From an uncultured delta proteobacterium (lineage in GTDB: Bacteria > Myxococcota > UBA727 > VGSZ01), in the NCBI GenBank assembly GCA_963775425.1, contig CAVZJB010000016.1, positions 1,024,001 through 1,088,000 on the forward strand: a stretch of DNA of 64,000 bases, written 5' to 3'. Below are positions 21,659 through 64,000 of the stretch, piece after piece. Position 1 is the stretch's first letter, and each line of letters begins with the position of its first letter. The position numbers and the translations under genes were made by a program. The notes below the pieces were generated by a model that ran no database searches, was not told where the DNA came from, and worked only from the letters and a program-made list of their open reading frames with translations.

Positions 21659-22366
21659 CTACTTGCGCTTGGCCTGGGCCTTCTTCTGGCCCTGGGCGCG
21701 CAGCTTGTCGACGTCCAGCCCCTTTTCGCGCATGGCCTCCTCGAGGACGGAGGCCGTGGCCTGGGCGAGCGCGCGGGCGCGGATGCCGAAGGGCTGCTCG
21801 CCCTTGGGGTCCAGGTCCACGGCGTGCTTGAGGTCCCGGAGGGCTTTTTCGATCTCGCCGTGCTGCAGGAGGATCTCGGCGCGGTTGACGTGGGACGCGA
21901 GGTCCTTGGGGTTCAGCTCGATGGCGATGGAGTACTCCTCCTGCGCCTCCTCGTGCATGCCCTTCCTGCCGTAGATGGAGCCGAGCAGCGAGTGGAAGTA
22001 CCCGTCGTACGGGTTGGAGATGACGAGCCCCTCGACGATGGTCTGGGCCTGGTCGTACTTGCCCTGCTCGAAGAGGTTGTACGCGATCTCGGCGAAGGCG
22101 TACGCGTCCTGCATGGTGAGCCCGGTGAGCTCGGCCCACGTGATCTCGCCCAGCACGAACTTGGTGAGGTTCTCGTCACTGAAGTTGGGCGTGTTGATCT
22201 CGCCCGCCTCCATCATCTGAATCACCTCGTCCTGCGAGTAGGTCGAGGGGTCGCGGCGGGGGTCGAAGATCTTCTTCTTTGCCTTGCCCTGCGCGGCCTT
22301 GCTCGTCTCGAGCTGTTTTGCGAGGGCGGAGGCCTTGGCGGATTCGTGGGTTGTCTTCGTCGCCAT
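21659..22366 (-). CDS. SycD/LcrH-like TPR chaperone (type III secretion class II type) with N-terminal extension
   Basis: GEITWAELTGLT...AYNLFEQGKYDQAQTIVEGLVISNPYD followed by three TPR-like repeats. Start placed at MATKTT. Confidence 0.75.
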   Translation of the reverse strand: MATKTTHESAKASALAKQLETSKAAQGKAKKKIFDPRRDPSTYSQDEVIQMMEAGEINTPNFSDENLTKFVLGEITWAELTGLTMQDAYAFAEIAYNLFEQGKYDQAQTIVEGLVISNPYDGYFHSLLGSIYGRKGMHEEAQEEYSIAIELNPKDLASHVNRAEILLQHGEIEKALRDLKHAVDLDPKGEQPFGIRARALAQATASVLEEAMREKGLDVDKLRAQGQKKAQAKRK

Positions 22367-22397
22367 ACGTGGACCCCAAGTAGCACGCCTGCCTGCC

Positions 22398-22431
22398 AAA
22401 AGGGAACGGCGCCGCCGAAGCAGCGCCGTTC
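22398..22431 (-). terminator. Intrinsic terminator with cUUCGg tetraloop
   Basis: The minus strand reads GAACGGCGCTGC-TTCG-GCGGCGCCGTTC-CCTTTT, a 12-bp stem with one G-U pair. It begins 18 nt after the stop of the 22450-23325 gene. Confidence 0.75.
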
Positions 22432-22449
22432 ATCCAGGACCCGGAGCGA

Positions 22450-23325
22450 TCAGCCCGCCTTGATGTGGCGGATGGCGTTCATGGCCTGGTCGTTCATCGT
22501 GTTGAGCACGTTGCTCATGGCCTGCTGCATCTGCGACAGCTTCTGGATCTCGTTCTTGATGATCTCGAACTCGATGTTGCGGCTGTCGCTGTTGCCGTCC
22601 TGCGTCGCCCCGTTCACGCCGGGAGCGACCGCGCCGGTGGCCTGGCCCGCGACGTTGCCGCCGCTGTTGCTCTGGTTGTCCTTGGCCTCGAGCTCCTTCA
22701 GGCGCTCCTCGACCTTCTCCTGCTTGTCCTTGATGACGTCGATCATGAAGGCCGCGACGATGTCCTCGAACATCGCGGGCTTCGGCAGCGACGCCAGCAT
22801 GGAGCCGGGGCCCTGGTTCGAGCGCGTCATGCCGGTCATCTGGCGCACCTTGGCGGTGTTGTTGCCGAAGGCGAGCCGCATGCCGGTGCCGGCGACGTCA
22901 TTGAGCTGCATGCCCGTGGCGCCGCCCAGGATGCCGGTGAGCAGGTTGCCGATGCCCCCCTGCATGTTGGCCAGGCCGCCCATGGCGGTGAGGCCGAGGG
23001 CCGGGCCGGCGAGGCTGGCGAGGTTGAGCCCGCCACCGGCACCGCCCGAAAGGAAGCCCTTCGGGAGGACGTTCAGTGCAGCCGTAAGACCCAGTGTTGC
23101 CACAGGGGAATTGACACCGAAGGCCTTGAGAGCGTGCCGCGCGAGGGCGCCCTTGTTGACCTTGCTCAGGTCGAAGCCGTCCTTGGTCATGCCGCGCGAC
23201 AGCTCGGCGGCGAGGCCGATCATCTCCGCCGCCTTGTCCGGCACGCCGACCATCTTCAGAGCGCCCGAGAGGATGCCCGTCTTCGAGATACCAAACGCGC
23301 CCAATGCATCGCCGAGGAAACCCAT
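22450..23325 (-). CDS. Putative type III-secreted filament/translocator-like protein
   Basis: Gly/Leu-rich N-terminal half, then FEDIVAAFMIDVIKDKQEKVEERLKEL and a C-terminal amphipathic helix QKLSQMQQAMSNVLNTMNDQAMNAIRHIKAG. No signal peptide, GGAG RBS, flanked by two SycD-like genes. The CDS itself is secure; the function is inferred. Confidence 0.6.
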   Translation of the reverse strand: MGFLGDALGAFGISKTGILSGALKMVGVPDKAAEMIGLAAELSRGMTKDGFDLSKVNKGALARHALKAFGVNSPVATLGLTAALNVLPKGFLSGGAGGGLNLASLAGPALGLTAMGGLANMQGGIGNLLTGILGGATGMQLNDVAGTGMRLAFGNNTAKVRQMTGMTRSNQGPGSMLASLPKPAMFEDIVAAFMIDVIKDKQEKVEERLKELEAKDNQSNSGGNVAGQATGAVAPGVNGATQDGNSDSRNIEFEIIKNEIQKLSQMQQAMSNVLNTMNDQAMNAIRHIKAG

Positions 23326-23384
23326 GATGTACTCCGTGTGTTGTTGTCGCGCGGAACGACCGCCGTTCCAGCGGGACCAACAGG

Positions 23385-23410
23385 TTATCGCAGGACGGTT
23401 ACCCAGGTTG
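23385..23410 (-). promoter_or_regulatory. Putative sigma28(FliA)-like promoter, copy 1
   Basis: The minus strand reads CAAC-ctgggtaaccgtcct-GCGATAA (15-nt spacer), about 60 nt upstream of ATG 23325. The same arrangement occurs at 61265-61290. Confidence 0.6.
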
Positions 23411-23544
23411 CGGATGTCGGCGAAGGTGTGATCGGATCCGAAGTCCGTGTTTATCCTACATTTCCCGCGCTTCGGCCCGCCGCCGCGTCCGCTCGGGGTC
23501 CGGGATTTCCCCCGCCTCGACCCCGCGCGTTATTCATACGGCGG

Positions 23545-24012
23545 ATGCCCGAGCCGGTAGATCCCCAGAAGCTGCCCGCGCTCCTGCCGAAATGGGCCGC
23601 CGGCCAGATCACGTTGAAGGAGCTCAAGGGCTACTCGGACGACGAGCTCTACGCCATCGCGCACACCGGCTACTTCTTCCTGATGCAGGGGAAGAACCAC
23701 GAGGCGCGCACGCTGTTCGAGGGCCTCGTCGCCATCGACCCGCGCAACGACTACTACTACCGCGCGCTCGGCGTGATCTTTCACAAGCTCGGCGACGCCG
23801 AGCGCGCGCTCAAGCAGTTCGGCTACGCCATCCGCGTGAGCCCGCGCTCGCCGAACGCCTACGTCAACCGCGCCGAGGTCTTCATCTCGACGTCGCGCTA
23901 CCAGGAGGCCGCCGGCGACCTGCGCCGCGCCCTCGAGCACATGGGGCCCCGCGACGTCGCGCTCGCCCGCAAGGCGCGCGCGCTCCTGGGCGTCGTCACG
24001 CGGAGACGATGA
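23545..24012 (+). CDS. Second SycD/LcrH-like TPR chaperone
   Basis: GQITLKELKGYSDDELYAIAHTGYFFLMQGKNHEARTLFEGLVAIDPRNDYYYRALG closely follows the SycD/LcrH N-terminal pattern. It is hidden at the end of the long 22465 ORF in the track. Confidence 0.8.
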   Translation: MPEPVDPQKLPALLPKWAAGQITLKELKGYSDDELYAIAHTGYFFLMQGKNHEARTLFEGLVAIDPRNDYYYRALGVIFHKLGDAERALKQFGYAIRVSPRSPNAYVNRAEVFISTSRYQEAAGDLRRALEHMGPRDVALARKARALLGVVTRRR

Positions 24013-24112
24013 TGCGCTTCGCCGCCGTCGCCCTCGTCGTCTTCGCCGCCGCGCGACGCGCCGGCGAGCGAGCGACGCGCAGCTTTGAGCACCCCCTCGT
24101 CGCGGGCCACTG

Positions 24113-24820
24113 ATGGCCGTCGAGCGCGCGGTCCTGCTCATCGCGGACATCGGCGGGTACACGCGCTTCATGACGTACCACCGGCTGAACCTCGCGCACG
24201 CGCAGGACACCATCGCGCGCCTGCTCGAGGCGGTCATCGACGCCGCCGGCCGGTTCAAGCTCGCCAAGCTCGAGGGCGACGCCGCGTTCTTCGCCGGCCC
24301 CGTCGCCGACGACACCGGCGACGCCGTCGCGGGCATGCGGCGCGCTTTCCTCAAACAGAAGAACAAGCTGGTCTCGGACCGCATGTGCACGTGCGACTCG
24401 TGCATGCAGATCGAGATGCTCAAGCTGAAGTTCGTGCTCCACGAGGGCGAGCTCGTGCGACAGAAGGTGAAGGGTCGCGAGGAGCTCGCGGGCGTCGACG
24501 TCATCCTCGTGCACCGCATGCTCAAAAACGACGTCCCGCTGAAGGAGTACGTGCTGGCCTCCGACCAGGCCAAAAAGCACGTCTCGCCGCTCGGCGAGCC
24601 CACCGAGATCATGCACAGCCTCGAGGGGCTCGGCGACGTGCGCACCCACTACGTCGACCTCACGACGCTGTCACTCGACGAGCCGCCGCCTCCGCCGCCC
24701 AAGGGGCTCAGGAAGCTCCTCACCAAGATCGCGTTCGAGGCCCGCTCGCTGCCGTACCTGATCGGCCTCAAAGAGCCGTGCAAGGACTTCGACTCGGTGC
24801 CCAAGCCCGACGAACGCTGA
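24113..24820 (+). CDS. DUF2652 family protein (nucleotide-cyclase-like fold)
   Basis: LLIADIGGYTRFM, KLEGDAAFF, CTCDSC, LKLKFVLHEGE and GVDVILVHRMLKN. Confidence 0.85.
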   Translation: MAVERAVLLIADIGGYTRFMTYHRLNLAHAQDTIARLLEAVIDAAGRFKLAKLEGDAAFFAGPVADDTGDAVAGMRRAFLKQKNKLVSDRMCTCDSCMQIEMLKLKFVLHEGELVRQKVKGREELAGVDVILVHRMLKNDVPLKEYVLASDQAKKHVSPLGEPTEIMHSLEGLGDVRTHYVDLTTLSLDEPPPPPPKGLRKLLTKIAFEARSLPYLIGLKEPCKDFDSVPKPDER

Positions 24821-24844
24821 AAGGCTGCCAAAAAATAAGGCTCG

Positions 24845-25460
24845 TAGCAGCACTCGGCGAAGCCGCCCACAAGGTGGCTCGCCGCGCGGAGTACGTGGCG
24901 AGGCACGTCGGCGCGCAAGAACCGCTGCAGGTTGTGAGGAAACGGCGGGTCCGAGCGGTGTTGTGATCCCGTTATCAGCGCACGTGGCGGGTTCGCGCGG
25001 GTCGTGTGCGCGCCGACGTGCCTCGATGCGACGTCGGCGCGGACCCACCGCCAAACTGCTCGGGGCCGATGAGGTCGTCCACGGCCTGGGTCTTCAGCTT
25101 GGGCGCTCTGAATCAGCGAAGGCTAGACAACGTCGCCACCGCCGGAGCGGAAGGAGCGGAGAGCTCGGCGCCCCGGCGCTCAACTCGGCGCGCGTCTTCG
25201 TCGCCGAGCTCGGAGCTCCTTTCCGCTCCGCCGTGTGGCCGTAGCACCGTCCCCTTCCGGGTGGCTCGGATCAACGGTCCATCGGGCCAGCCCTCGTCGC
25301 CAATCGCGCGCGCTGCATCGGCCGCAGGGCCCCCCTCGCGGGGCGCGTCGGAGGGCCCGGCGACGTCCCCGGCGTCTCTCCGACGCGGGCGACAAGCCCG
25401 CGCTACGGACCGTCGACGGAGCCGTCGGCCGTGGCCCGGGGCGCTGCGTCGACGGAGGTC
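24845..25460. other. Palindrome-rich intergenic region (candidate structured RNA or REP/MITE-like repeat cluster)
   Basis: 19-bp perfect inverted repeat at 24899-24917/25007-25025. 11-bp IR at 25009-25019/25031-25041. Long imperfect hairpin at 25144-25170/25202-25229. 10-bp IR at 25344-25353/25378-25387. No credible ORF. Confidence 0.5.
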
Positions 25461-25464
25461 GCGC

Positions 25465-26868
25465 TCACGCGCGGTAACGGGCGACGCGCAGGGCGGCGGC
25501 GAAGTCGGCGGCGGCGACGCGGGCGCTGTCGGGCTCGAGCTGTTCGATCTTGTCGTTGAGGGCCGCGCGCGCCTGCTCCCAGACGGCGTCGAACGCGCCG
25601 GCCTTCTCGACGACGAGGTGGAAGAGCTTCTCCGCGGGCTGCTTGTTGCCGTAGACGCCCGGACGAAAGAGCGTGAAGTCCCACGCGTAGGTGGCGGCGC
25701 CGTCGCCGTCGTCGTCGCGGACGATGGCGGCGAGGCCGGCGCTTATCTGCTCGGTGAGCGAGACCACCTCCCAGTGCCCCTCCTCGTGCTCGTCCTCGTC
25801 GTCGACGACGTTGGTGTGCCCGCGCCGCTCGTCGGCGATGTCCTCGTCGCCGGCGGGGGCGTTGCCGTCGCGCCCGGCCTTCCACGGATCGTCGACGTCG
25901 CCGGCCGCGCCGTCGGCGTGCGCCCCGGGGGCGCCGCTGTGCGCGAGCTCCTGCGGGGCGTCGCGCGCCTCGGCGCCGCGCGCCCCGTCGCCTCTCTGCG
26001 CGCCGTCGCCGCGGTCGGCGCGGCCGTCGCCGCGCGCGCCGTCGTCGCCGCGGGCGCTCCCCTCGGTGCGCGCGTCCTCACCGTGGGCGGCGGGAGCGCC
26101 TGAGCGTCCGTCGCCGGCGCGCGCCTCGTCGGCGGCGCGCGCGTCGCGGTTGTCCGACGACGTCAGCGGCAGCGCGCGCTCGTCGACGATGCCGCGGCGG
26201 ACCAGCGCCTCTGCGGTCTTTCCGTCGAGCTGCCCGGAGGCAGGGAGGCCCTCGGCGCGCTGCAGCTTCTTGAGCGCGTCCTTGAGCTGCTCGGCGCCCT
26301 TGCCGCCACCCGCGAAGCCCGCCGCGCGCAGCGACGACAGGAAGCTCTTCAGGTCGAGCTCGGGGGGCTTGTCGCGCGCGGACTTGTCCACCGCCTGCTC
26401 GAGCTCGACCGCCTGCGCGCTCCTGGCGCCCTCGGGGACGCCGGCGTCGCCACGGGGCAAGCCGAGGTCGCCGCCGAGCCGGCGCCCGTCGGCGTCGAAC
26501 GACGCGGGCCGCTCGCCCGCTCGCGCCGGCGCCGTCGTCGACGACGCCTCCTCGGCGCCGCGCGGCATGAGCCCGGCCTCCTCGAGCGCCGCGTGCGTCT
26601 CGTGATCGAGCACGCCGGTCTCCGGCAGGCCGCGCTCCTTCTGGAACAGCTTCAGCGCCTGCGCGAGCTCGCCGTCCGCGTTGCCCGTCTTGGCGACGGG
26701 GAAGCCGGCGGCGCGCAGCCCGGCCAGGAGCTGGGCGACGAGCTTCTTCGCCTCCGTCGGCGTGCGCGCCGAGCCGAAGTCCATGAGCCGCTGCAGCGGC
26801 GACTTCGGTTGTTGCCGCGCGGGCCGCGGCGCTTGCGGGAGCTCCGGGTGCTTTGCGCGGATGGCCAT
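25465..26868 (-). CDS. Protein with two peptidoglycan-binding-like (PG_binding_1) repeats and an unknown C-terminal domain
   Basis: LRAAGF...ALKLFQKERGLPETGVLDHETHAAL and LRAAGF...ALKKLQRAEGLPASGQLDGKTAEAL. Confidence 0.8.
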   Translation of the reverse strand: MAIRAKHPELPQAPRPARQQPKSPLQRLMDFGSARTPTEAKKLVAQLLAGLRAAGFPVAKTGNADGELAQALKLFQKERGLPETGVLDHETHAALEEAGLMPRGAEEASSTTAPARAGERPASFDADGRRLGGDLGLPRGDAGVPEGARSAQAVELEQAVDKSARDKPPELDLKSFLSSLRAAGFAGGGKGAEQLKDALKKLQRAEGLPASGQLDGKTAEALVRRGIVDERALPLTSSDNRDARAADEARAGDGRSGAPAAHGEDARTEGSARGDDGARGDGRADRGDGAQRGDGARGAEARDAPQELAHSGAPGAHADGAAGDVDDPWKAGRDGNAPAGDEDIADERRGHTNVVDDEDEHEEGHWEVVSLTEQISAGLAAIVRDDDGDGAATYAWDFTLFRPGVYGNKQPAEKLFHLVVEKAGAFDAVWEQARAALNDKIEQLEPDSARVAAADFAAALRVARYRA

Positions 26869-26911
26869 GGCGCACGACGAGGTTAGCCGATATGCGGCGC
26901 GCGGAGGTCCC

Positions 26912-29125: not shown

Positions 29126-29144
29126 CGTCGTGGCCCGCGCGCGC

Positions 29145-32087: not shown

Positions 32088-32153
32088 GGTGCCCATTGCT
32101 AGCACAGGCCCCGCGCGCCGGCCGCGGCGACGGGGCGCGGCGCGGGACGGGGC

Positions 32154-54917: not shown

Positions 54918-54941
54918 CCGTGACGCAGCGGGGCCGCTGAC

Positions 54942-55376
54942 TCAGGCCCCGAGCGGCCGCACCGCGATGGTGCAGCGGCACACCGAGACGAGCTTGCCGT
55001 CGTTCTCCACGACGATCGCGTAGACCAGCGAGGTCCTGCCTTTGTGCAGCGGCGTCGCCGTGGCGCGCAGGGTGCCCTCCGTCGCCGAGCGCACGTGGCT
55101 CGCGGAGATCTCCTGCCCGGCCACGCGAAAGCGCGTCACGTCCACCGCGAGCGCCGCCGCCGCCGACGCCGCGCTCTCGGCCATCAACACGTAGACGCCG
55201 CCGTGGACGATGCCGGCGTGCTGAAAGAGCCGCTCGTCGACGTCGGTCTCGACGACCACGCGGTCCGCCGTGATCTCCACCGCGCGGATGCCCAGCGTGT
55301 GCAGCACCGTGTGGGGATCGCGCTCGCGCATGAAGGCGATGACATCGTCGACGCTCGGCGGCTTGTGCTCGCTCAT
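54942..55376 (-). CDS. PaaI/hotdog-fold thioesterase
   Basis: QHAGIVHGGVYVLMAESAAS, EISASHVRS and PLHKGRT. Confidence 0.9.
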   Translation of the reverse strand: MSEHKPPSVDDVIAFMRERDPHTVLHTLGIRAVEITADRVVVETDVDERLFQHAGIVHGGVYVLMAESAASAAAALAVDVTRFRVAGQEISASHVRSATEGTLRATATPLHKGRTSLVYAIVVENDGKLVSVCRCTIAVRPLGA

Positions 55377-55442
55377 CGCTCGTTCTCCGGTTAGGCTGCG
55401 CTCCCGCGGCGTCGTCTCCGCGTTCCCCCGGAGCAAGTCACG

Positions 55443-55985
55443 ATGAGCCAGTCCCCGCAAGCAAGCACCGATCAAGGGCCGTCCGTCACACTGCCCGTCC
55501 TCGGCATCGTCTTGTCCGTCCTGTGCTTCCCCGTAGGGCTCGTGCTCGCCATCGTGTCGATGGTGAAGTACTCGTCGGCCGTCGGCACCAGCGCCAAGAC
55601 GCTCTCGGTGGTGGCGCTGGTGGTGTCGCTCGCCATGGTCGGGTTGCAGGGCGTCGGCTGCCTCGCCGCCATCGCCATCCCCAACTTCGTCAAGTACCAG
55701 TGCAAGAGCAAGCAGTCCGAGGCCAAGGCCAACCTGCGGGCGCTCGGGGTCGCCGAGCACGGTTACGCCGCGGACAACGGCGGCTTCAGCGCCGATCTCC
55801 ACGCGCTTGGCTTCGAGGCGCACGGCGTGCACGTCCGCTACGACTACGTCGTGGACCGCGCCGACAAGGAGCACTTCCACGCCGTGGCCACGGCCAAGCC
55901 CGGGGCGGCCGGGGAGCTCAACGGCGACAGTTGGGAGATCGACGAGAGCGGCCTGCCCCGCAACACCGTCGACGGCTGCCGCTAG
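55443..55985 (+). CDS. DUF4190-like TM hairpin fused to a type IV pilin-like domain
   Basis: LAAIAIPNFVKYQCKSKQSEAKANL is a PilA-type helix. It is preceded by TM helices rather than a G|FTLIE prepilin site. Confidence 0.75.
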   Translation: MSQSPQASTDQGPSVTLPVLGIVLSVLCFPVGLVLAIVSMVKYSSAVGTSAKTLSVVALVVSLAMVGLQGVGCLAAIAIPNFVKYQCKSKQSEAKANLRALGVAEHGYAADNGGFSADLHALGFEAHGVHVRYDYVVDRADKEHFHAVATAKPGAAGELNGDSWEIDESGLPRNTVDGCR

Positions 55986-56015
55986 AGAAGTGATCCGCAT
56001 CGCGGAATAGGGTCA

Positions 56016-56089
56016 GTGCCGGCACGCGGTGGGCCCGCCGCCGATGCGCGTGCCGGCACGCCCGCCGCTTCGTGCGCATTTTTGTTTTT
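56016..56089. terminator. Hairpin(s) plus T-tract between convergent genes
   Basis: 13-bp IR GTGCCGGCACGCG/CGCGTGCCGGCAC at 56016-56059. GCACG...CGTGC stem followed by TTTTTGTTTTT on the + strand. Confidence 0.55.
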
Positions 56090-56106
56090 GCGGTTCAACT
56101 CTCTGG

Positions 56107-59100
56107 TCACGCCAAAGCGGCGTCCACGATCGCCTTCTGCTCGGCGACGTGCCGCTTGTGCGAGCCCGCGGCCGGGCTCGCCTGCGCCGGGCGCCCGACG
56201 TAGCGCGCGGTGACGCCCAGCGCGCGCAGGCGCGGCTCCATGAAGGACCAGGCGCCCATGTTCTCGGGCTCCTCCTGCGCCCACACCACCTCGTCGGGAC
56301 GCACGTCGTCGAGCACGGCGCGCACGCGCTCCTCGGGGAACGGGTAGAGCTGCTCGACGCGCACGACGGCCACGTCGCCCTTCGGTTCCTTCCTGCGGGT
56401 GCGATCGATGTCCCAGTAGAGCTTGCCCGTGCAGAGCACCAGGCGCCGGCACGCGGGGCCCCGGGTGCGGCGCGGGTCCTCGAGCACGGGCTCGAAGCGT
56501 CCGCCGGCGAGGTCGTCGACGTGGGAGGCCGCGTCGTCGGCGCGCAACAGGCTCTTGTGCGTGAACACGATGAGCGGCTTCTTCGGCAGCTTGGCCTGGC
56601 GCCGGATCAGGTGGAAGTACTGCGCCGGCGTCGACGCGATGGCCACGCGCATGTTGTCGTCGGCGCAGAGCTGGAGGAACCGCTCCACGCGCGCGCTCGA
56701 GTGCTCGGGTCCCTGCCCGTCGTAGCCGTGCGGCAGCAGCATCACCACGCGCGAGCGCTGGCCCCACTTGGCCTCGCCGGCGGCGATGAACTGGTCCACC
56801 TGGACCTGCGCCCCGTTCCAGAAGTCGCCGAACTGCGCCTCCCATAAAACGAGCGAGTCGGGGTGGCTGACGGAGTAGCCGTACTCGAAGCCGAGCACCG
56901 CCTCCTCCGACAACAGCGAGTCGTAGATGCGGAAGCGCGACGGGTGCCACTGCTCCTCGCCCTCGTCGCGCGACTTGTGCAGGAAATTGAGCGGGATGTA
57001 GGGGCGGCCGTCGTTGACGTCGTACAGGACCGCGTGGCGCTGGGCGAAGGTCCCGCGGCCCACGTCCTGGCCGGACAGCCGCACAGGCACGCCCTCGAGC
57101 AGCAGCGAGCCGAAGGCGAGGTTCTCCGCCATGCCGAAGTCGATGCCGGGCTTGCCCTCGAAGACCATGCTGCGGCGCTTGTCGAGGATCTGCGTCTTCA
57201 CCCGCGGGTGGATCTCGATGACCTCGGGCGCGTAGGTGATGCGGTCGGTGATGCGCTTGAGCGTGTCGACGGGGACGGTAGTGTCAACCGTGTCGGGGTC
57301 GACGACGTCGGAGAGCGCCAGGCTGCCCGTGCGGCGCGCCGGGGGGACGGCGGCGCGCCCCTTCTCCTTGATGGCGCCGAACGCGGCCTCGAGGCGCTCG
57401 TGGACGGCGGCGTCGACGGCCTTCACCTCGTCGTCGCTGAGGTCGCCGCGGCGCACCAGCAGCGCGGAATAGTGGTCCTGTGTGGGCTCGTGGCCCTCGA
57501 TGGCCCGGTAGAGGATGGGCTGCGTGAAGCTCGGCTCGTCGCCCTCGTTGTGGCCCCAGCGGCGGTAGCAGACCATGTCGATGACGACGTCGCGGGCGAA
57601 CTTCATCCGGTATTCGCACGCGATGCGCATGGCGCGAACGCACGCCTCGGGGTCGTCGCCGTTGACGCGCAGGATGGGCGCCTGGATGGCGCGCGCGATG
57701 TCCGAGCAATTCATGCTCGTGCGGGCGCGCTCGGGCCCGGTGGTGTAGCCGATCTGGTTGTTGATGATGACGTGGACGGTGCCGCCGACGCGGTAGCCGT
57801 TGAGCCCCGACATCTGCAGCACCTCGTAGACCACGCCCTGCCCCGCGAACGCGGCGTCGCCATGGATGAGGAACGGCACCACCTTCCTGCGGGCGCGGTC
57901 GCCGGTCATGTCCTGCTTGGCGCGGGTCTGCCCGAGCACCACCGGGTCCACCGCCTCGAGGTGGCTCGGGTTGCACGCGAGCTCGAGCCGGAGCGCGCGC
58001 TCCTCGACGTGGGCGCTGCCGTCGAGCGTGAGCCCCTTCCACTTGTGAACGCCCTTGGCGCCGAGGTGGTACTTCACGTCGCCGGAGCCCTCGGCGCCGC
58101 CCGGCCCGGGCGCGCGGGCCGGCCCGGCGTCGAAGTCCTCGAACTCCGCGAAGATGGCCTCGAGCGGCTTGCCGATGACGTTGGCGAGCACGTTCAAGCG
58201 GCCGCGGTGCGCCATGCCGATGACGGCCTCCGTGGCGCCGAAGGCGGCGGCCATGTCGAGGCCCTCGACGAGCATGACCATGGCGCTCTCGGCGCCCTCC
58301 ACCGAGAAGCGCTTCTGTCCGATGTAGCGCTTGTGCAGGAAGCGCTCGAAGCCCTGGGCCTGGCAGAGCGTGGCGAGGATCTGCTTCTTGTCGTCGATGG
58401 ACAGCACGTCGGGCTTGCGCTCCACGCGCTGCTTGAGCCACGTCCGCTGCTCGACGTCGGCGATGTGCATGTACTCGAGGCCGAGCCGACGGCAGTACGT
58501 GTCGCGGAGCCGCTCGAGGATCTCGCGCAGCGGCGCGATGGGCTTCTCGCAGACGCCGAGCGTGAGGAACTCGCGGTCGAGATCCCAGATGGTGAGCCCG
58601 TACTGATCGATGTTGACGTCGGCGTGTTCGCGCGGCTTGAGGTCGAGCGGGTCGACGTTGGCCACGATGTGGCCACGAACGCGAAACGCGTGGATGAGCT
58701 GTGAGACGCGCATCGCCTTTTCGGTGTCGGCGAACGATCCGCCGATCACCGCGCGGTCGCGCTTGAGCCGGTAGGGGTGGTGCGGGATGCGGATGGCCTG
58801 GAACAGCTCGTCGTAGAACCCGTGCTCGCCGTTCAACAGCTCGTGCACGCGCTGCAGGTACGCGCCCGACTCCGCGCCCTGGATGATGCGGTGGTCGTAC
58901 GTCGACGTCACCGTCATCACCTTGCCTACGCCGAGCTGGCGGATGGTGTCCGGCGCCATGGCCTCGTACTCGGCGGGGTAGCCGATGGCGCCGGTGGCGA
59001 TGATGGCCCCCTGCCCCGGCATCAAGCGCGGCGCCGACGCCACCGTGCCGATACCGCCCGGGTTGGTGAGCGTCATGGTGGTGCCGTCGAAGTCGGCGGC

Positions 59101-59769
59101 GGTGAGCTTTCCCCGCCGGGCGCGATCGATGAGATCGATGTACGCCTCGAGGAACGCGCGGAAGTCGAGCTTCTGCGCGGCCTTCACGTTGGGCACCACC
59201 AGCGTGCGCCCGCCGCCGCGGCCGGGGAGGTCGATGGCGATGCCGAGGTTGACGTCGTCGCGGACGATGCGCGCGGGCTTGCCCCCGACGACGGCGAAGC
59301 CGTGGTTCATCGAGGTCACCTGGTGCACGGCCTTCACCAGCGCGAACGCGATGATGTGCGTGTAGCTCGCGCGCGGCCGCGCGTCGTCCTCGAGGTACGT
59401 GTTGATGACGCGGCGGTTCTCCTCGAGCACCTTGACCGGCACCGTGCGCGACGACATCGCCGTGGGCAGCTCGAGCGACGCCTCCATGTTCTCGACGATC
59501 TTCGCGGCCACGCCGACGAGCAGCTCCGCCGACCCCGCCGGCGGCGGCGCAGGCGCAGGCGCAGGCGCAGGCGCGGACGGACGGACGGACACCGCATGCT
59601 GCGGCGCGGGCCCCCCGTTGCCGCCGTCGCCGGCGGCGGGTGCCGCAACGTCGGCGGCGAAGAACGCGCGCCACTCGTCGGCGACGCTCATCGGATCCTG
59701 CGCCCACTGCGCACGCAAGGACTCCACGTAGCTCGCGTTCACACCGAAGCGGGAGGCCGAGTCGACCAT
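56107..59769 (-). CDS. sucA: Multifunctional 2-oxoglutarate dehydrogenase E1 with N-terminal E2-like acyltransferase domain (OdhA/Kgd type)
   Basis: FGVNASYVE; E2-like TLTNPGGIGT and TYDHRIIQGA; then E1 motifs GMAHRGRLN, GDVKYHLG, HGDAAFAGQG and LLPHGYDGQGPEHSSAR. Confidence 0.95.
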   Translation of the reverse strand: MVDSASRFGVNASYVESLRAQWAQDPMSVADEWRAFFAADVAAPAAGDGGNGGPAPQHAVSVRPSAPAPAPAPAPPPAGSAELLVGVAAKIVENMEASLELPTAMSSRTVPVKVLEENRRVINTYLEDDARPRASYTHIIAFALVKAVHQVTSMNHGFAVVGGKPARIVRDDVNLGIAIDLPGRGGGRTLVVPNVKAAQKLDFRAFLEAYIDLIDRARRGKLTAADFDGTTMTLTNPGGIGTVASAPRLMPGQGAIIATGAIGYPAEYEAMAPDTIRQLGVGKVMTVTSTYDHRIIQGAESGAYLQRVHELLNGEHGFYDELFQAIRIPHHPYRLKRDRAVIGGSFADTEKAMRVSQLIHAFRVRGHIVANVDPLDLKPREHADVNIDQYGLTIWDLDREFLTLGVCEKPIAPLREILERLRDTYCRRLGLEYMHIADVEQRTWLKQRVERKPDVLSIDDKKQILATLCQAQGFERFLHKRYIGQKRFSVEGAESAMVMLVEGLDMAAAFGATEAVIGMAHRGRLNVLANVIGKPLEAIFAEFEDFDAGPARAPGPGGAEGSGDVKYHLGAKGVHKWKGLTLDGSAHVEERALRLELACNPSHLEAVDPVVLGQTRAKQDMTGDRARRKVVPFLIHGDAAFAGQGVVYEVLQMSGLNGYRVGGTVHVIINNQIGYTTGPERARTSMNCSDIARAIQAPILRVNGDDPEACVRAMRIACEYRMKFARDVVIDMVCYRRWGHNEGDEPSFTQPILYRAIEGHEPTQDHYSALLVRRGDLSDDEVKAVDAAVHERLEAAFGAIKEKGRAAVPPARRTGSLALSDVVDPDTVDTTVPVDTLKRITDRITYAPEVIEIHPRVKTQILDKRRSMVFEGKPGIDFGMAENLAFGSLLLEGVPVRLSGQDVGRGTFAQRHAVLYDVNDGRPYIPLNFLHKSRDEGEEQWHPSRFRIYDSLLSEEAVLGFEYGYSVSHPDSLVLWEAQFGDFWNGAQVQVDQFIAAGEAKWGQRSRVVMLLPHGYDGQGPEHSSARVERFLQLCADDNMRVAIASTPAQYFHLIRRQAKLPKKPLIVFTHKSLLRADDAASHVDDLAGGRFEPVLEDPRRTRGPACRRLVLCTGKLYWDIDRTRRKEPKGDVAVVRVEQLYPFPEERVRAVLDDVRPDEVVWAQEEPENMGAWSFMEPRLRALGVTARYVGRPAQASPAAGSHKRHVAEQKAIVDAALA

Positions 59770-59886
59770 GCGACCGCTGTACCAACGAGTCCCGTCATCG
59801 TCGAGGACCTGAGCGTTGTTAGAGCAAACCGTGGCGTCGTAAATCCGCGGCCCCCTCACCGGCCGGTCGCTGAGAGGAGCACCTTC

Positions 59887-60279
59887 ATGCAGCCCGCACT
59901 CCCCCCCGTTCAGACTGCGTCCACCGGGGAGCTCGTGTCCGAGCTCGTCCGGCAGACCGGCGATCTCGTCAAAGCCGAGCTGTCCCTCGCGCGGACCGAG
60001 CTGCGCCACGACGTGCAGGCGGAGCTGTCGATGGTCGCGCGCGCCGCCGTCGCCGTGGTCTGCGTCCTGTGGGCCGTCGACGCGTTGCTCGTGGCAGCGG
60101 TGCTCGGCCTCGCCGTCGCGCTCCCGGCGTGGCTGGCGGCCCTGATCGTCGCCGCCGGCCTTCTCGCCGTCGCGCTCGTCGCCGGGCTGCTCGCGTGGTC
60201 GAAGCGCACCCGTCCCCTCTCACGAACCGCGCGAACGCTTCAGGAGAATGTGCGATGGGCGAAACAACGACTGGCGTAG
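59887..60279 (+). CDS. Holin-superfamily-like membrane protein (YqjE/DUF1469 type)
   Basis: STGELVSEL...LVKAELSLARTEL, two TM helices and RTLQENVRW, with an AGGAG RBS. Confidence 0.82.
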   Translation: MQPALPPVQTASTGELVSELVRQTGDLVKAELSLARTELRHDVQAELSMVARAAVAVVCVLWAVDALLVAAVLGLAVALPAWLAALIVAAGLLAVALVAGLLAWSKRTRPLSRTARTLQENVRWAKQRLA

Positions 60280-60746
60280 ACACCCCCGACCTGCTCGAGC
60301 TGCAGATCGACAACATCCGCAACAACGTCATCGGCATCGTCGACGAGCTCGACCACCGGCGGCAGGACTGGGGTGCGCGCCTCAAGCACCGCACGAGCAT
60401 GGTCGCGCTGGGCGGGCTCGTCCTCGTCGCCGGCGCGGTCGCCGCGGGCGTGCTCCTCGGCCGGCGGCGGCGACATCATCGTCGGCTCGCGGGACGCGCG
60501 AGGAACCTGGGCCGCGCCGTGGCCCGCGTCGCCGACGATCCCGACGTGCTGCTGCGGCGGCCCTCGATGTCCGCCCGCGTGCTGGGCGCGGCGCTGGCGG
60601 CGGTGGCGGCGACGGTGGCCAAACAGCTCACGATCCGCGCGCTGGCGGCGCCGAAGGCCCCGCGGCAACTGCAGGCGCCGTCGCGGGTGGAGCGAGCGGC
60701 CGCGCGGCAGGCGAGCAAGCAGCCGTGGCGCGCGCTCAACCCATGA
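60255..60746 (+). CDS. DUF3618-like membrane protein
   Basis: LELQIDNIRNNVIGIVDELDHR followed by a TM helix. This is the usual partner of the preceding family. Confidence 0.65.
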   Translation: MGETTTGVDTPDLLELQIDNIRNNVIGIVDELDHRRQDWGARLKHRTSMVALGGLVLVAGAVAAGVLLGRRRRHHRRLAGRARNLGRAVARVADDPDVLLRRPSMSARVLGAALAAVAATVAKQLTIRALAAPKAPRQLQAPSRVERAAARQASKQPWRALNP

Positions 60747-60764
60747 GCGAGGGCGGGGGAGCGC

Positions 60765-61244
60765 TCAGCCGGCCTGGGTGCCGATGATGCGGCCGTAGAT
60801 CTGCTCCTGCATCTCCTGGAGGTGCTTGAGGAGCTGGAGCATGTTGTGCTCGCGGGTGGCCGAGGCGCGCATGCGGTCGGCGTCCTCGGGCTTCACGCCG
60901 GAGGGCAGCTTGAGCGCCTGCGTCAGCGCCTTCGCGGTGTCCGTCGCCGCACGCTGAAGCGCCCGGCGGATCATCATGTGGTCGTGGCGGGGGCCCGTGG
61001 GCGTAGCGAAGGGGTTCGCCGCCTCCGGCACCGCCAGCCGCAGCGTCTCCGACGACGTCGAAGGCTGGATGAACTCCACCGGCCCGCGCTGGGCGATGGG
61101 AGCGACATCCGACTTCTGCACCTTGGCAGGTGTCTGGTGGACCTTCAGCTCGTCGGCGGTCATCCCCGCCGGGCCGATGGCGCCGCCGGACGGAGAGACC
61201 CACGGGAACCTGCGCACCTGCCGTTTTTGTAGCTCTTCCGCCAT
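60765..61244 (-). CDS. Hypothetical protein downstream of sctU; candidate T3SS substrate
   Basis: GAGG RBS, Pro-rich N-terminus and C-terminal amphipathic helix MLQLLKHLQEMQEQIYGRIIGTQAG. Confidence 0.7.
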   Translation of the reverse strand: MAEELQKRQVRRFPWVSPSGGAIGPAGMTADELKVHQTPAKVQKSDVAPIAQRGPVEFIQPSTSSETLRLAVPEAANPFATPTGPRHDHMMIRRALQRAATDTAKALTQALKLPSGVKPEDADRMRASATREHNMLQLLKHLQEMQEQIYGRIIGTQAG

Positions 61245-61264
61245 GGGCACGACCTCAGCGACGA

Positions 61265-61290
61265 TTATCGCCGAACGGGGCCGGGGGTTG
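61265..61290 (-). promoter_or_regulatory. Putative sigma28(FliA)-like promoter, copy 2, embedded in the 3' end of sctU
   Basis: The minus strand reads CAAC-ccccggccccgttcg-GCGATAA (15-nt spacer). The TAA is the sctU stop, 20 nt upstream of ATG 61244. Confidence 0.6.
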
Positions 61291-62413
61291 TGGCCGGCTG
61301 TTTCTGTTGATTTTGCGGTGACTTACGTCGGCGCCGCTCCTCGGCCGCCTTGGCCTCGCGCTCCTTCAGCTCGTAGACGAAGTTCAGGACCTCGGCGACG
61401 GCCTCGTAGAGCTCCTCGGGGATCTCCTCGTCGAGCTCGAGCTTGTTGAGCGCCTGCGCGAGCGGGACGTTTCGCAGGATGGGGACGCCCGCGTCGCGCG
61501 CGATGTCCTTGATGGTCTCCGCGTTCTTGCGCATGCCCTTGGCGACGACACGCGGCGCGCCGCCGTTTTCCTTGTCGTACTTGATGGCGACGGCAATGTG
61601 AGCAGGGTTCACGACGACAGCATCGGCGTTGGCCACGTTTTGTTGACTCCCATGCAGGATCAGCTCCTCGGCGAGCGCGCGCCGCTCGGACTTCATGTGC
61701 GGATCGCCCTCGGACTGCTTGTATTCCTGCTTCACGTCGTACTTCGACATCTTCATGTCTTTCATGAAGACGTGCCGCTGCCAGAAGAAGTCGGCGACCG
61801 CGATGATGACGAAGAGGAAGCCGACGCGGACGGCGATGTTGTACATGATCTGCCCGCCGACGGCGACGCCGGTCCACAGGTCGATGCGCGCCGACAACAC
61901 CACCTCGCGGGCGCTCTCCTTCACGCTGCTGTAGGCCACGTAGCTCACCATGAGGAACTTGATGAGCTGCTTGAGGCTCTCGACGAGCTTCTTCTTGGAG
62001 AAGAGGTTCTTGAAGCCGTCGACCGGGTTGAGCTTCTTGATGTCGGGCTTCAGCGGCTCCGCGGTGAAGAGGAAGCCGACCTGCATGTAGTTCGACACGA
62101 GCGCGGACACGACGGCGGCGCCGAGGATGGGCGCGCACGCGAGGAACACCGTCCACAGCGCCTGCTGCAGAACGTCGACGACGATGGGGAGGTCGCCACC
62201 GCGGCGGACGGCGCTGTCGATGGCCGCCCACAAAAACCTGCGCAGCCGGTCCGCCGTCATGCTGAAGGTGAGCGCCGTCGTCGCAAAGACGATGATGAAG
62301 CCGAGGGCCTGGATGGCGTCCTGGCTCTTGGACACCTGGCCCTTGTCGCGCGCCTGCTTCAGCTTTTGCGGCGAGGCCTCCTCGGTCTTCTCGCCGGTTC
62401 CGCCGTCGGACAT
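61265..62413 (-). CDS. sctU: Type III export apparatus switch protein SctU/FlhB family
   Basis: GEKTEEASPQKLKQARDKGQVSKS, KLNPVDGFKNLFS, MKMSKYDVKQEYKQSEGDP, NPAH, APRVVAKG and NVPLAQAL. Confidence 0.93.
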   Translation of the reverse strand: MSDGGTGEKTEEASPQKLKQARDKGQVSKSQDAIQALGFIIVFATTALTFSMTADRLRRFLWAAIDSAVRRGGDLPIVVDVLQQALWTVFLACAPILGAAVVSALVSNYMQVGFLFTAEPLKPDIKKLNPVDGFKNLFSKKKLVESLKQLIKFLMVSYVAYSSVKESAREVVLSARIDLWTGVAVGGQIMYNIAVRVGFLFVIIAVADFFWQRHVFMKDMKMSKYDVKQEYKQSEGDPHMKSERRALAEELILHGSQQNVANADAVVVNPAHIAVAIKYDKENGGAPRVVAKGMRKNAETIKDIARDAGVPILRNVPLAQALNKLELDEEIPEELYEAVAEVLNFVYELKEREAKAAEERRRRKSPQNQQKQPATTPGPVRR

Positions 62414-62499
62414 GGGGGCAACATACCGCGCCACGACGTCACCGTGTCCCTGTGCAGGAACGGCCGGCGTGCTATGCGGCACCTCCCACGAGGTGCGCG

Positions 62500-63357
62500 G
62501 TGACGGTTGGCGGCGGCGGCGGCAAGAAGATCCCCCCGGGAGGGCCTCAAAAGGCCCCCAAGCCGCCGTCCACCCCGCCGTCGACGGCGGCGGACCCGGG
62601 CAAGACCGAGGCCCCCGACAAGCCGGCCGCGGCCGAGCAGGCGCTGCGCACGGACGCCTTCGAGGGCGGCTTCAAGTCCATGTCTCGCGGCACCACCGAC
62701 GTCACCCGCCTCGACGCCGTCCTCGAGGGCGCCTTCGCCCACGCCTCCACTCCTTCGGGCATCGAGAGCCTCGTGCGCATGCTCGAGGCCGCGCGCACGC
62801 AGCTCGCGGCGGAGCACCGGGCGCTGCGGGAGCAGGCGCAGTCCGCGGTGGAGCGGCTCGTTCAGTCGGGCTTCTCGCCGGCGCAGCTCGACAAGGCGCG
62901 CCATGAGCTCCTCGAGCTCCGAAAGAAGATGGCCGCGCTGAGAAAGCGCCTCCACCACCTGCAGCGGCGGCTGAAGACGGCGTTCGCGTCGGCGGGCAAG
63001 ACCGGCGACGCCAACTTCGCCAAGCTGCTCGGCGCCCAGCTCTCCAAGCTGCGGCAGATGGAGCCGGGCCTGTCGCGGGCCTTGCTCGCGCTGTCCACCA
63101 TCGAGCAGGCGTACGGCTCCTTCGCCGACGGCTCCACGGCCGTCCTGCGCGTGCACGTCGGCGAGACCGGCGCCGGCCGCCTCGGCGACGCGCTCGCCGC
63201 GCTCGCCCCGGGCGCCGCGGTCTCGCTCGCTTCGCTCACGCTCCTGCGCGAGGGCGCCGGCGCCGCGCCCCCGGCCGGCGACGACGTCGACGCCCCCGAA
63301 GCCCTCGACGGCCTGCGTGCCCTCACCGACGCCCTCGTGCCGCCCGGTCGCAAGTGA
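62500..63357 (+). CDS. Hypothetical coiled-coil protein, divergent from sctU
   Basis: GAGG RBS, Gly/Pro-rich N-terminus and a long heptad-like helical centre. Confidence 0.75.
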   Translation: MTVGGGGGKKIPPGGPQKAPKPPSTPPSTAADPGKTEAPDKPAAAEQALRTDAFEGGFKSMSRGTTDVTRLDAVLEGAFAHASTPSGIESLVRMLEAARTQLAAEHRALREQAQSAVERLVQSGFSPAQLDKARHELLELRKKMAALRKRLHHLQRRLKTAFASAGKTGDANFAKLLGAQLSKLRQMEPGLSRALLALSTIEQAYGSFADGSTAVLRVHVGETGAGRLGDALAALAPGAAVSLASLTLLREGAGAAPPAGDDVDAPEALDGLRALTDALVPPGRK

Positions 63358-63358
63358 C

Positions 63359-64000
63359 ATGTCGTTCCTCGCGCTCACCGACGACGAGCTCGCGCTTCTG
63401 CGCTTCACGTGTGACCTGTTCTTCGTCGAGGAGTCCCCGCTGTACGCGCTAGAGCAGGAGCAGCGGGAGCCGGAGGACTACGGCGCCGCGTACCACGCGC
63501 TCGTCGAGCGCGGCATCATCGATCCCCACGGCTTCCGCATCACCGACGACGCGCTCAACCGTGTCGCGCCCGTCACGGAGTGCGATGCGCGCGTGATGCA
63601 CGTGGTGGCGCCGCGCGGGGAGCCGGCGCGGCGCACGGACCATTGGCTCCTCGACGAGATCGCGGTCAGCTACGAGCACATCGACGGCCGCCACGTCTTC
63701 GGCACGGACCTCGATCAGGACGAGCTCGTCGAGTCCCTGGCCCGCCACCTGCTGCCGCGCCGCGCGGGCGGCGATCGCCTCGACCTCGTCGTCACCGCGC
63801 TCGAGTTCACGGCGCTCGGCGTCCTGCTCGAGTACGTGCGCGGCACCCAGAATCGCGAGGTGCCGCTCCTCGAGGCGCGGCGGATCTTCAAGAAGCCGCC
63901 GCCGGAGGAGCAGGCGGCGCCGGCGTTGCCCTTGCTGCTGCCGCGCCGGCCGGCGACGCGCTCCAGGGCCGGCGCGGTCGTCGACGATCCCGCGTGGGAC
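63359..64000 (+). CDS. Hypothetical protein, partial (runs off the window)
   Basis: Not in the ORF track. ATG lies 1 bp after the upstream stop and the frame is open to the window end: MSFLALTDDELALLRFTCDLFFVEESPL...YHALVERGIIDP... Confidence 0.75.
   Translation, partial: MSFLALTDDELALLRFTCDLFFVEESPLYALEQEQREPEDYGAAYHALVERGIIDPHGFRITDDALNRVAPVTECDARVMHVVAPRGEPARRTDHWLLDEIAVSYEHIDGRHVFGTDLDQDELVESLARHLLPRRAGGDRLDLVVTALEFTALGVLLEYVRGTQNREVPLLEARRIFKKPPPEEQAAPALPLLLPRRPATRSRAGAVVDDPAWD

Follow-up and report, generated by a model that had tools for sequence, protein, structure and literature searches.

A solitary sctU gene and a chaperone-flanked glycine-rich protein gene with a common promoter-like motif: possible parts of a dispersed type III-type export system in uncultured Myxococcota

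Gene content of the two islets and conservation of sctU

The stretch of DNA analyzed here, called the window throughout, comprises 64 000 nucleotides (positions 1 024 001 to 1 088 000) of contig CAVZJB010000016.1 from an uncultured delta proteobacterium placed in the Myxococcota (assembly GCA_963775425.1), with a G+C content of 66–78% in 2-kb steps. It carries two small groups of genes about 38 kb apart (Table 1). Islet A consists of two genes for tetratricopeptide repeat (TPR) proteins, TPR1 and TPR2, which resemble the SycD/LcrH chaperones of type III secretion systems (T3SS) and flank a gene for a Gly/Ala-rich protein; islet B holds a stand-alone gene for a member of the SctU/FlhB family of export-apparatus switch proteins. 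A two-block promoter-like motif lies upstream of the Gly-rich gene in islet A and of p161, the gene directly downstream of sctU, in islet B. We consider it possible, with a probability of roughly 0.45, that these are parts of a type III-type export system spread among the housekeeping genes of an uncultured high-G+C Myxococcota lineage.

The original prediction had described islet A as a Gly-rich coiled-coil protein between two SycD-like chaperones and islet B as an orphan SctU flanked by unknown genes, with no other T3SS or flagellar genes nearby and a common motif upstream of a candidate substrate gene in each. This description was borne out by the analyses that follow, and the earlier reading as a whole is partly supported, with no result bearing on the possible role in predation that it also named. 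Genes were called on the basis of third-position G+C, and 80 open reading frame (ORF) translations (12 + 37 + 31 gap ORFs, with the gaps read in all frames) were compared with Pfam, which gave Bac_export_2 as the only type III or flagellar family in the window and matched no sigma or anti-sigma gene. Between the islets lie housekeeping genes (sulfate assimilation, prolyl oligopeptidase, HrpB helicase, MgsA, 2-oxoacid dehydrogenases and others). An Rfam scan across the whole window gave nothing, as did PHROGs for six proteins and PADLOC for the six proteins other than the two TPR proteins, which showed just two weak TPR-region matches (PrimPol and PDC-M16B).

Table 1. Features of the two islets and their positions in the window
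Feature	Position	Strand	Description
TPR1	21659–22399	−	SycD/LcrH-like TPR protein; probable ATG at 22366, 235 aa, N-terminal extension of about 85 aa
Hairpin	22404–22431	−	12-bp G+C hairpin, UUCG loop, then CCUUUUGG (short U-run); between Gly-rich gene and TPR1
Gly-rich	22450–23325	−	Gly/Ala-rich protein, 291 aa; 15.1% Gly, 13.1% Ala; between TPR1 and TPR2 genes
Motif A	23385–23412 (core 23410–23386)	−	Promoter-like, CGCAAC-N16-CGATAA; 59 nt upstream of Gly-rich ATG
TPR2	23545–24012	+	SycD/LcrH-like TPR protein, 155 aa; divergent from Gly-rich gene
p161	60765–61244	−	159 aa from ATG 61244; directly downstream of sctU; no family
Motif B	61265–61292 (core 61290–61266)	−	Promoter-like, ACAAC-N16-CGATAA; −10 block ends 20 nt before p161 ATG
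sctU	61265–62413	−	SctU/FlhB-family export-apparatus switch protein, 382 aa; stand-alone
p301	62500–63357	+	About 285 aa from GTG 62500; Gly/Pro/Lys-rich N-terminus, then coiled coil; divergent from sctU
p228	63359–64000	+	Cut by window end; about 333 aa in relatives; EspG-like fold

The SctU protein of the window covers the whole of the PF01312 profile (373 bits, E = 1.8e-111, positions 1–335 of 335) and carries its autocleavage site as NPAH. The NPxH form of this site was found in all eight clade members, five of them reading NPAH and one each NPSH, NPVH and NPTH; the third residue also varies elsewhere in the family, with NPEH in the Vibrio FlhB-type rows (L057 and L058) and NPSH in RhcU of Bradyrhizobium. 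The search with SctU returned 58 loci, of which 13 (L001–L013) are contigs of metagenome-assembled genomes (MAGs) found at groundwater and lake sites and labelled Myxococcota, Myxococcales or Deltaproteobacteria, with proteins 60–77% identical to that of the window, the remaining 45 being mostly flagellar FlhB of Bacillota at 30–40% identity. Among the matches listed, 120 relatives were 59–100% identical, and one orthologue (L011) lies in a stretch of 44.5% G+C. The ratio of non-synonymous to synonymous substitution rates (dN/dS) was 0.23–0.45 against four orthologues, with the synonymous sites probably constrained by the extreme G+C bias. Judged from its sequence, SctU is intact and conserved.

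Comparison of synteny in relatives, as had been proposed, found sctU to stand alone in all 13 related loci, just as it does in the window. Neither sctRST nor fliPQR lies beside it in the window or in these loci, and no sct or fli family besides SctU turned up in 84 ORFs taken from 12 of these loci (±10 kb). A small module is conserved instead, in which p228 and p301 diverge from sctU and p161, with p161 orthologues downstream of sctU in 9 of the 13 loci and p301-p228 in 5.

With regard to type, the protein scored 361 bits with the SctU model TIGR01404, just above the cut-off of 358, and 337.2 bits with the FlhB model TIGR00328, below the cut-off of 349.25, so that it passed just one of these equivalog models and by a small margin. 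Among 22 neighbouring representatives, 21 also scored SctU over FlhB, and two from the flagellar clade scored the opposite. The Joint Genome Institute (JGI) names for its relatives are FlhB, and the next genome matches past the clade are FlhB proteins of Bacillota with 33–40% identity. A quick tree of 99 rows gathered the labelled flagellar proteins in a 47-row clade (support of 97 in the Shimodaira–Hasegawa-like approximate likelihood ratio test, SH-aLRT) while a clade of 7 rows (96) held the Ysc, Spa, Desulfovibrio, Rhc and Pantoea proteins; the window clade was in neither and fell in a 16-row set (97) whose members are unlabelled environmental representatives. The flagellar rows stood on the side of the branch without the window clade at SH-aLRT 97 and 91 in quick trees. 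A careful tree of 55 rows supported the window clade at 96/85 and its 18-row group at 91/92, with the flagellar group being separated only weakly (74/9, 76% of bootstrap trees). In this tree the group of the window clade, combined with further unlabelled groups and HrcU of Ralstonia, was sister to the flagellar group (54/83), and the enclosing branch (93/97) was set apart from the Ysc, Spa, Desulfovibrio and Rhc rows, while the long-branched Ralstonia and Pantoea proteins were scattered. In view of the TIGR scores, the scores of solved relatives (given below) and the trees, the protein seems best described as a deep, distinct branch of the family and not as a clear injectisome type. In the trees it falls outside the labelled flagellar group, but outside the classic injectisome group too.

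Other genes recur around sctU. At 5–9 kb upstream of it are type IV pilus genes, namely pilM/N/O/P in L006 and pilO/P in L012, together with a gene for a secretin of the PilQ type, in the stretches L006:143–8211, L012:4–7998 and L011:26–4829, with AMIN domains in the L006 and L012 secretins. The pilus genes are followed by genes for elongation factor P (EF-P) and an Rsm22-type methyltransferase in L006 and L012, with aroQ also in L011 and L012; EF-P is found upstream of sctU in L009 and L011, the latter having Rsm22 as well. In the window, this pilus/EF-P stretch would fall past base 64000. In L003 (92–2531) and L002 (7499–9983), the two most distant members of the clade, sctU is immediately preceded by genes for PspA, a HupE/UreJ membrane protein and a protein resembling CesT_Tir_1 (PF22550, E = 3e-27). 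The CesT_Tir_1-like gene of L003, with its homologue in L002, was considered as a T3SS chaperone gene, and such a role is uncertain because of its pairing with PspA.

On the other side of islet B, positions 56107–60764 of the window hold a fused 2-oxoglutarate dehydrogenase E1/E2-type gene (1300 aa) and familyless ORFs (60010–60764). Relative to L006, L007 and L009 this is an insertion between p161 and a pilin-like gene, the window ORF at 55443–55985 being homologous to the pilin-like gene of L006; the same dehydrogenase neighbour is present in L012 and L013.

The promoter-like motif shared by the islets

The original prediction had mentioned a motif without giving its sequence, and it was here found by comparing upstream regions. 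The pattern CAAC-N14-17-CGATA matched the two strands of the window exactly twice (mean of 0.61 and maximum of 3 in 200 shuffles), once before the Gly-rich gene and once before p161. Motif A sits in a 219-bp intergenic region, on the correct strand and with an exact 16-nt spacing. Adding 11 sites from related loci, of which 10 lie before p161 or in the contig end that follows sctU and 1 lies in L002, gave 13 sites in total. The motif precedes the p161 orthologues in L005–L013 and, in L004, is found past sctU where the contig ends, the position of motif B being conserved in L004–L013. CAAC is invariant and CGATA is present in all 13 sites, the spacing is 16 nt in 11 of them (15 and 17 in the other two), and the −10 block ends 16–92 nt before the start codon. 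When a matrix was built from the nine non-window sites, the top two sites of the window were motif B (22.3) and motif A (17.9), with the third scoring 13.8; a matrix from 11 sites found no other strong site in the 13 loci, bar a weaker one inside the coding sequence of sctU. The promoter predicted before p161 is firmly established by phylogenetic footprinting.

The p161 promoter overlaps the end of sctU. The stop codon TAA of sctU supplies the final three bases of this −10 element in the window and also in L005, L008 and L010; the long and variable C-terminal tails of SctU (residues ~355–400) are translated promoter sequence, and the shorter orthologues of 354–355 aa (L002, L003, L011 and L012) end before the element. 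In L002, which has no p161, the motif (16516–16544, minus strand) precedes the gene for a small helical protein of 146 aa (16022–16462, minus strand); this gene, which lies 5 kb from sctU and has no family, is another candidate for the regulon. As for sctU itself, it has no Shine–Dalgarno sequence and a −10-like hexamer (TATGTT, TAGAAC, TATGCT or TAAGAC) precedes its ATG by a few to about 12 nt, both in the window (62414–62440, minus strand) and upstream of sctU in L001 and L004–L010, which together suggest that the sctU mRNA is leaderless or has a very short leader. A sigma-70 promoter scan gave no site close to islet A or islet B.

The consensus of the motif reads cccGCAACc-N14-gCCGATAAcc, and its −10 element is that of sigma-28, GCCGATAA. 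This element is complete in L002, L004 and L008, and takes the forms GGCGATAA and TGCGATAA at the two sites of the window. The fliC promoter of Pseudomonas aeruginosa, as given in an account of its sigma-28 control, has (−36)TCTAAAG(−30) and (−15)GCCGATAA(−8), with the same 14-nt gap between its 7-mer and 8-mer (PMC12784957). The flagellum-style sigma-28 control of the original prediction is matched in these respects, the −10 element and the spacing, but not in the −35 block GCAAC. Promoters of extracytoplasmic function (ECF) sigma factors have an AAC block followed, after about 16 nt, by CGT, and in those of Bacillus subtilis SigW/SigM the AAC and CG(A/T) blocks are 16 nt apart. The predicted motif fits an ECF-type promoter about as well as a sigma-28 promoter. 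Sigma-28 relatives are not confined to flagellated bacteria according to the accounts of WhiG, which works in non-flagellated Streptomyces (PMC12871210), and of FliA/FlgM in the non-flagellated Legionella oakridgensis (PMC5655016).

Chaperone-type proteins and their candidate clients

LcrH_SycD (TIGR02552) was the NCBIfam model that fitted TPR1 and TPR2 best, with 75.5 bits for TPR1 (profile positions 4–131 of 136) and 80.9 bits for TPR2 (3–133 of 136); the runner-up families scored 47.9 and 36.4 bits, a lead of about 28 and 44 bits for SycD/LcrH. TPR2, with 155 aa, has the best family, full coverage, three TPRs and the length of roughly 150 aa that go with SycD/LcrH chaperones of class II. 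The TPR part of TPR1, which matched 18 TPR-type Pfam families, found SycD (E = 1.5e-7) and PcrH (E = 9.5e-7) amid generic TPR proteins in profile searches of the PDB, and TPR2 found PcrH (E = 5.8e-9, residues 22–154 vs 6–140) as well as AcrH and SycD. The best solved matches of both are generic and designed TPR proteins, with PcrH, SycD and AcrH aligning over their full length. TPR1 and TPR2 are paralogues (32% identity over 149 aa, E = 4e-24). TPR2 has 399 relatives at E ≤ 1e-10; among the matches listed, 120 were 61–93% identical and one was named LcrH/SycD by JGI.

The protein encoded between them has a helical N-terminal part, a Gly-rich and moderately hydrophobic middle (maximum KD19 of 1.28) and a conserved C-terminal helix–loop–helix, and is a candidate for a secreted or membrane-active substrate. 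It belongs to no Pfam or NCBIfam family, and its 118 relatives are all called ‘hypothetical’ or are nameless. Their alignment shows the N-terminal helical part, a variable Gly/Ala-rich middle, the conserved helix LPKPAMFEDIVAAFMxD(F/V)VKDKQ, a Gly-rich loop and a near-invariant final helix, SRNIEFE..KNE.QKLSQMQQAMSNVLN. The last two helices recur on paralogues of 240–486 aa with unrelated N-termini (P0081, P0086, P0087, P0096 and P0108), some of which have long glycine-zipper linkers. Since some of these paralogues come from the same MAG series as the Gly-rich orthologues, the genomes hold several proteins with one common C-terminal hairpin, which points to a modular family to which the Gly-rich protein would belong. 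Its AlphaFold model had a predicted local distance difference test (pLDDT) score of 50.5 and was not used for a fold search because this was too poor.

Profile searches detected no homology of the Gly-rich family to translocator, needle, tip or flagellar axial proteins, and Flagellin, Flg_bb_rod and FlgM of Pfam gave no match at E ≤ 10. The one weak match of the family in the PDB profile search was the pore-forming toxin XaxA (E = 0.016), the PDB searches with this family and with p161 giving besides it an uncharacterised protein at E = 0.02, and the Gly-rich and p161 families showed no relationship to each other by hhalign (probability of 0.25%). As language-model leads, Protein Atlas gave similarities of 0.92 and 0.91 to nameless clusters and, for the Gly-rich protein, of 0.89 to a cluster with 10% T3SS_needle_F members. 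Read by eye, the N-termini of the Gly-rich protein, p161 and p301 show no obvious Sec signal.

Islet A (22001–24000) is also the G+C minimum of the window, at 0.660 vs 0.68–0.78 elsewhere. Because the third-position G+C of the Gly-rich and TPR genes is 0.93, this low value would reflect their amino-acid make-up and not a recent transfer. The hairpin between the Gly-rich gene and TPR1 has a perfect 12-pair stem, with its 71-nt context being unexceptional (z = −1.12), and is absent from the output of a simple terminator scan; it could be a terminator or attenuator setting the ratio of the Gly-rich and TPR1 products.

Among the neighbours of sctU, p161 is a candidate substrate or regulator, for which the PDB profile search gave nothing meaningful and Protein Atlas a similarity of at most 0.85, as a lead. 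Its identity as a FlgM is without family support and remains speculation. The p301 protein, for which Pfam and PDB sequence searches gave just weak coiled-coil-type matches, is encoded by a gene with its stop codon one base before the start codon of p228 and is a candidate client of the p228 protein.

The p228 protein is predicted to have the fold of EspG, a chaperone of type VII secretion. We modelled the orthologue at L006:8114–9112 (minus strand), with a pLDDT of 78.8 and a predicted template modelling (TM) score, pTM, of 0.74, and all 18 Foldseek matches in the PDB at E ≤ 0.001 were EspG1, EspG3 or EspG5 (E = 2.8e-9 to 3.6e-6, probability of 1.00, TM scores of 0.37–0.53), the next match having an E of 5.9e-3 and a probability of 0.15. 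At the sequence level, three orthologues gave no Pfam match at E ≤ 1 and the PDB profile search did not bring up EspG; the sctU loci examined held no ESX genes. By this model, a third chaperone-type protein adjoins sctU, together with the gene of a helical partner.

A possible dispersed export system weighed against its rivals

Linkage of the islets in other genomes was read indirectly from the longest contig per protein in the match tables. Ten contig sizes coincide between TPR2 and Gly-rich relatives (7725, 5406, 3412, 380735, 6485, 17318, 4568, 5577, 6157 and 3346) and four between SctU and TPR2 relatives (331398, 124169, 67905 and 17597), and one Gly-rich orthologue lies on a contig of 75 560 bp, a size equal to that of the sctU contig of L006. 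Contigs of equal size are presumably the same contigs, with the islet genes co-occurring. FlhB/SctU is described as working while mounted on the FliPQR/SctRST gate (PMC7064499), and the conserved SctU therefore implies that such partners exist. Together with the findings above, this leads us to propose a genome-scattered T3SS, as the most parsimonious explanation of a switch protein, three chaperone-type proteins with helical clients and a late-gene promoter. In such a system the SctRST gate, SctV and the ATPase would be encoded elsewhere, an alternative sigma factor (sigma-28-like or ECF) would switch on p161 and the Gly-rich gene as one regulon, and their products would be late substrates or substrate-linked regulators of the export apparatus, the TPR proteins and the EspG-fold protein holding helical clients in the cytoplasm until export. 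More speculatively, p161 might act like FlgM as a small exported sigma inhibitor, so that transcription of late substrates would follow completion of the apparatus. Put together as an undescribed, genome-dispersed type III-derived system of a widespread uncultured Myxococcota clade, with p161 and the new Gly-rich family with its common C-terminal hairpin as substrates, sigma-28-type promoters, SycD-like and EspG-fold chaperones that bring type III and type VII chaperone kinds to a single machine, and p161 as an exported anti-sigma factor coupling transcription to export, the proposal becomes quite unlikely.

A number of results weigh against a dispersed type III-type system. None of sctR, S, T, V, N, J or Q and no dedicated secretin gene was found in the window or within ±10 kb of the sctU orthologues, and the secretin matches in L006, L011 and L012 are of the PilQ type, following pilM/N/O/P in L006 and L012. 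Among solved structures, SctU is closest to flagellar FlhB proteins (6s3l at 177 bits and 8z5s at 171, vs 122 for SpaS). Both TPR proteins score under the curated cut-off of TIGR02552, which is 104.8 bits, and are therefore not LcrH_SycD members by NCBI's rule, so that of their SycD/LcrH identity what stands is the best curated family with full coverage; the relatives of TPR2 listed are mostly named TadD, PilF or plain TPR. Regarding the candidate substrates, none of 23 members of the Gly-rich family matched a T3SS Pfam family at E ≤ 10, none of 10 members of the p161 family had any Pfam match at that threshold, FlgM included, and searches of 547 ORFs from the T3SS regions of Yersinia, Shigella and Nitratidesulfovibrio with both families (hmmsearch) reached an E of 0.52 at best. 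Comparison by hhalign with 17 named T3SS components, a set that left out YopD, YopB and LcrV, gave at most 1.1% for the Gly-rich family and at most 7% overall. The −35 block of the motif, (C)GCAAC(C), is not the TAAA(G) of sigma-28 and has just the central AA in common with CTAAAG. Since one of 30 shuffled windows had a top site (19.4) above the 17.9 of motif A, this site is by score alone only moderately significant, its position and strand adding weight, and the tie that the motif makes between islet A and sctU is known from one genome alone.

The lack of further core genes, in the 80 ORFs of the window as in the 84 ORFs of 12 related loci, is what would be expected if there were no working type III system, SctU being a relic or recruited orphan, islet A an unrelated membrane-active or pore-forming module with TPR partners and the motif the sign of an ECF or developmental regulon. 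We hold this to be somewhat unlikely. It would agree with the AAC...CG(A/T) blocks and 16-nt spacing of ECF promoters, with the presence of the envelope-stress protein PspA beside sctU in L002 and L003, with XaxA as the sole, weak PDB profile match of the Gly-rich family (E = 0.016) and with TPR scores under the SycD cut-off. A relic, however, would not retain a full reading frame, the NPxH site in 8 of 8 clade members and 59–84% identity in >100 clusters from 44–72% G+C; SycD/LcrH is still the best family of the TPR proteins by a wide margin, and three chaperone-type proteins near candidate helical clients would make an odd coincidence. Still narrower is the view that motif A merely resembles the motif by chance, the motif being real just before p161 and the islets functionally unrelated. 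The shuffled window with a best site of 19.4 speaks for it, but the next best site in the real window scored just 13.8, motif A lies on the correct strand, in an intergenic stretch of 219 bp and 59 nt ahead of a start codon, with the 16-nt spacing of 11 of the 13 sites, and four contig sizes coincide between TPR2 and SctU relatives, for which reasons we regard chance as very improbable.

Campylobacter and Helicobacter build their flagellum from scattered genes, and a scattered-gene flagellum or a derivative of one could likewise be considered here, with FlhB, a sigma-28 class-3 promoter, an FlgM-like p161 and the Gly-rich protein as a divergent late axial component. The scores of the solved FlhB structures (177 and 171 bits vs 122 for SpaS), the JGI names, the Bacillota FlhB as next genome matches (33–40%), the sigma-28 −10 element with its spacing and the careful tree, which has the window-clade group as sister to the flagellar group (54/83) within the 93/97 branch, would all fit. 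Nevertheless, no flagellar gene accompanies sctU in the window or related loci, neither the Gly-rich protein nor p161 matched Flagellin, Flg_bb_rod or FlgM at E ≤ 10, TIGR00328 stayed under its cut-off and TIGR01404 rose over it, and the labelled flagellar rows split from the window clade (97 and 91 in quick trees, weakly at 74/9 and 76% in the careful one). TPR chaperones of the class II type are moreover a feature of injectisomes and not of flagella. A flagellum or flagellum-derived structure of this kind is in our view distinctly improbable, and the dispersed type III-type system is the reading that we carry forward in the comparisons below.

In Chlamydiales, SycD-like TPR chaperones (Scc2/Scc3) are encoded beside translocators and a sigma-28 homologue is at work in a non-flagellated organism. 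Scattered non-flagellar T3SS have been described in an evolutionary survey of the family for all Chlamydiales, Hamiltonella defensa and one Yersinia plasmid (PMC3459982). The same account has the type III genes of Chlamydiales over several loci among other genes, much as here (PMC3459982); three of the Chlamydia loci are described as each holding several core genes, whereas here no core gene accompanies sctU, either in the window or in any of the 13 related loci. Closer by phylum are the ‘Myxo’ or needle-less systems (T3SS*) of Myxococcus xanthus and other Cystobacterineae, a basal non-flagellar family described as being without dedicated secretin, needle or translocon homologues (PMC3459982, PMC10849154). 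In comparison with the description of this family, the trees having taken in no Myxococcus or Chlamydia reference, the window SctU also has a deep branching position, between the labelled flagellar proteins and those of classic injectisomes, which is compatible with the basal ‘Myxo’ position as reported by Abby and Rocha (PMC3459982). The ‘Myxo’ loci are, on the other hand, described as compact and of conserved gene order, unlike the solitary sctU seen here (PMC3459982), and they are not reported to have YopB/YopD-like proteins or SycD-type chaperones.

Flagellar class-3 control by sigma-28 (FliA/SigD/WhiG, with FlgM) has in common with the window the (G)CCGATAA −10 element and the 14-nt gap, as in the published fliC promoter (PMC12784957), as well as the motif being placed before small non-enzymatic genes beside an export-switch gene; it differs in the −35 sequence, (TC)TAAAG and not GCAAC, and the window holds no fliA or flgM, with p161 giving no FlgM match. 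The TPR proteins share with the SycD/LcrH/PcrH/IpgC chaperones a length of about 155 aa, a three-TPR build and full-length PcrH, SycD and AcrH matches. Translocators of the SctB type have about 290 aa, a hydrophobic middle and a C-terminal coiled coil, and the protein flanked by the TPR genes is similar in its length of about 290 aa, its hydrophobic Gly-rich middle and its C-terminal coiled coil. Differences from SycD/YopB/YopD systems are that the chaperone scores are under cut-off, that two chaperone paralogues accompany one visible client and that this client is not detectably homologous to Desulfovibrio SctB or to needle and tip proteins. With EspG of the type VII (ESX) systems, p228 would share the fold and an adjoining gene for a helical protein, as EspG has its PE-PPE clients, but there is no sequence similarity, the TM scores are 0.37–0.53, the host is Gram-negative, no ESX gene is nearby and the neighbour is sctU.

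The open-access literature searched, with supplements such as Dataset S2 of PMC12403147 being outside its scope, gave no description of this arrangement. It is generally assumed that type III systems form compact clusters, with the ‘Myxo’ family as the main witness for an origin of the injectisome from the flagellum. Three features of the present loci bear on that origin: the solitary and conserved switch protein, the promoter tie to new, chaperone-flanked proteins and the neighbour with a predicted EspG fold. Detectors that search for clusters, such as TXSScan under its default co-localisation rule, would overlook scattered systems in MAGs, and the promoter motif offers a direct way to list the regulon across whole genomes. 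Should the remainder of the machine exist, this early branch would have a new arrangement, possibly with new substrates and chaperones, and would show flagellum-style control of late genes outside flagella.

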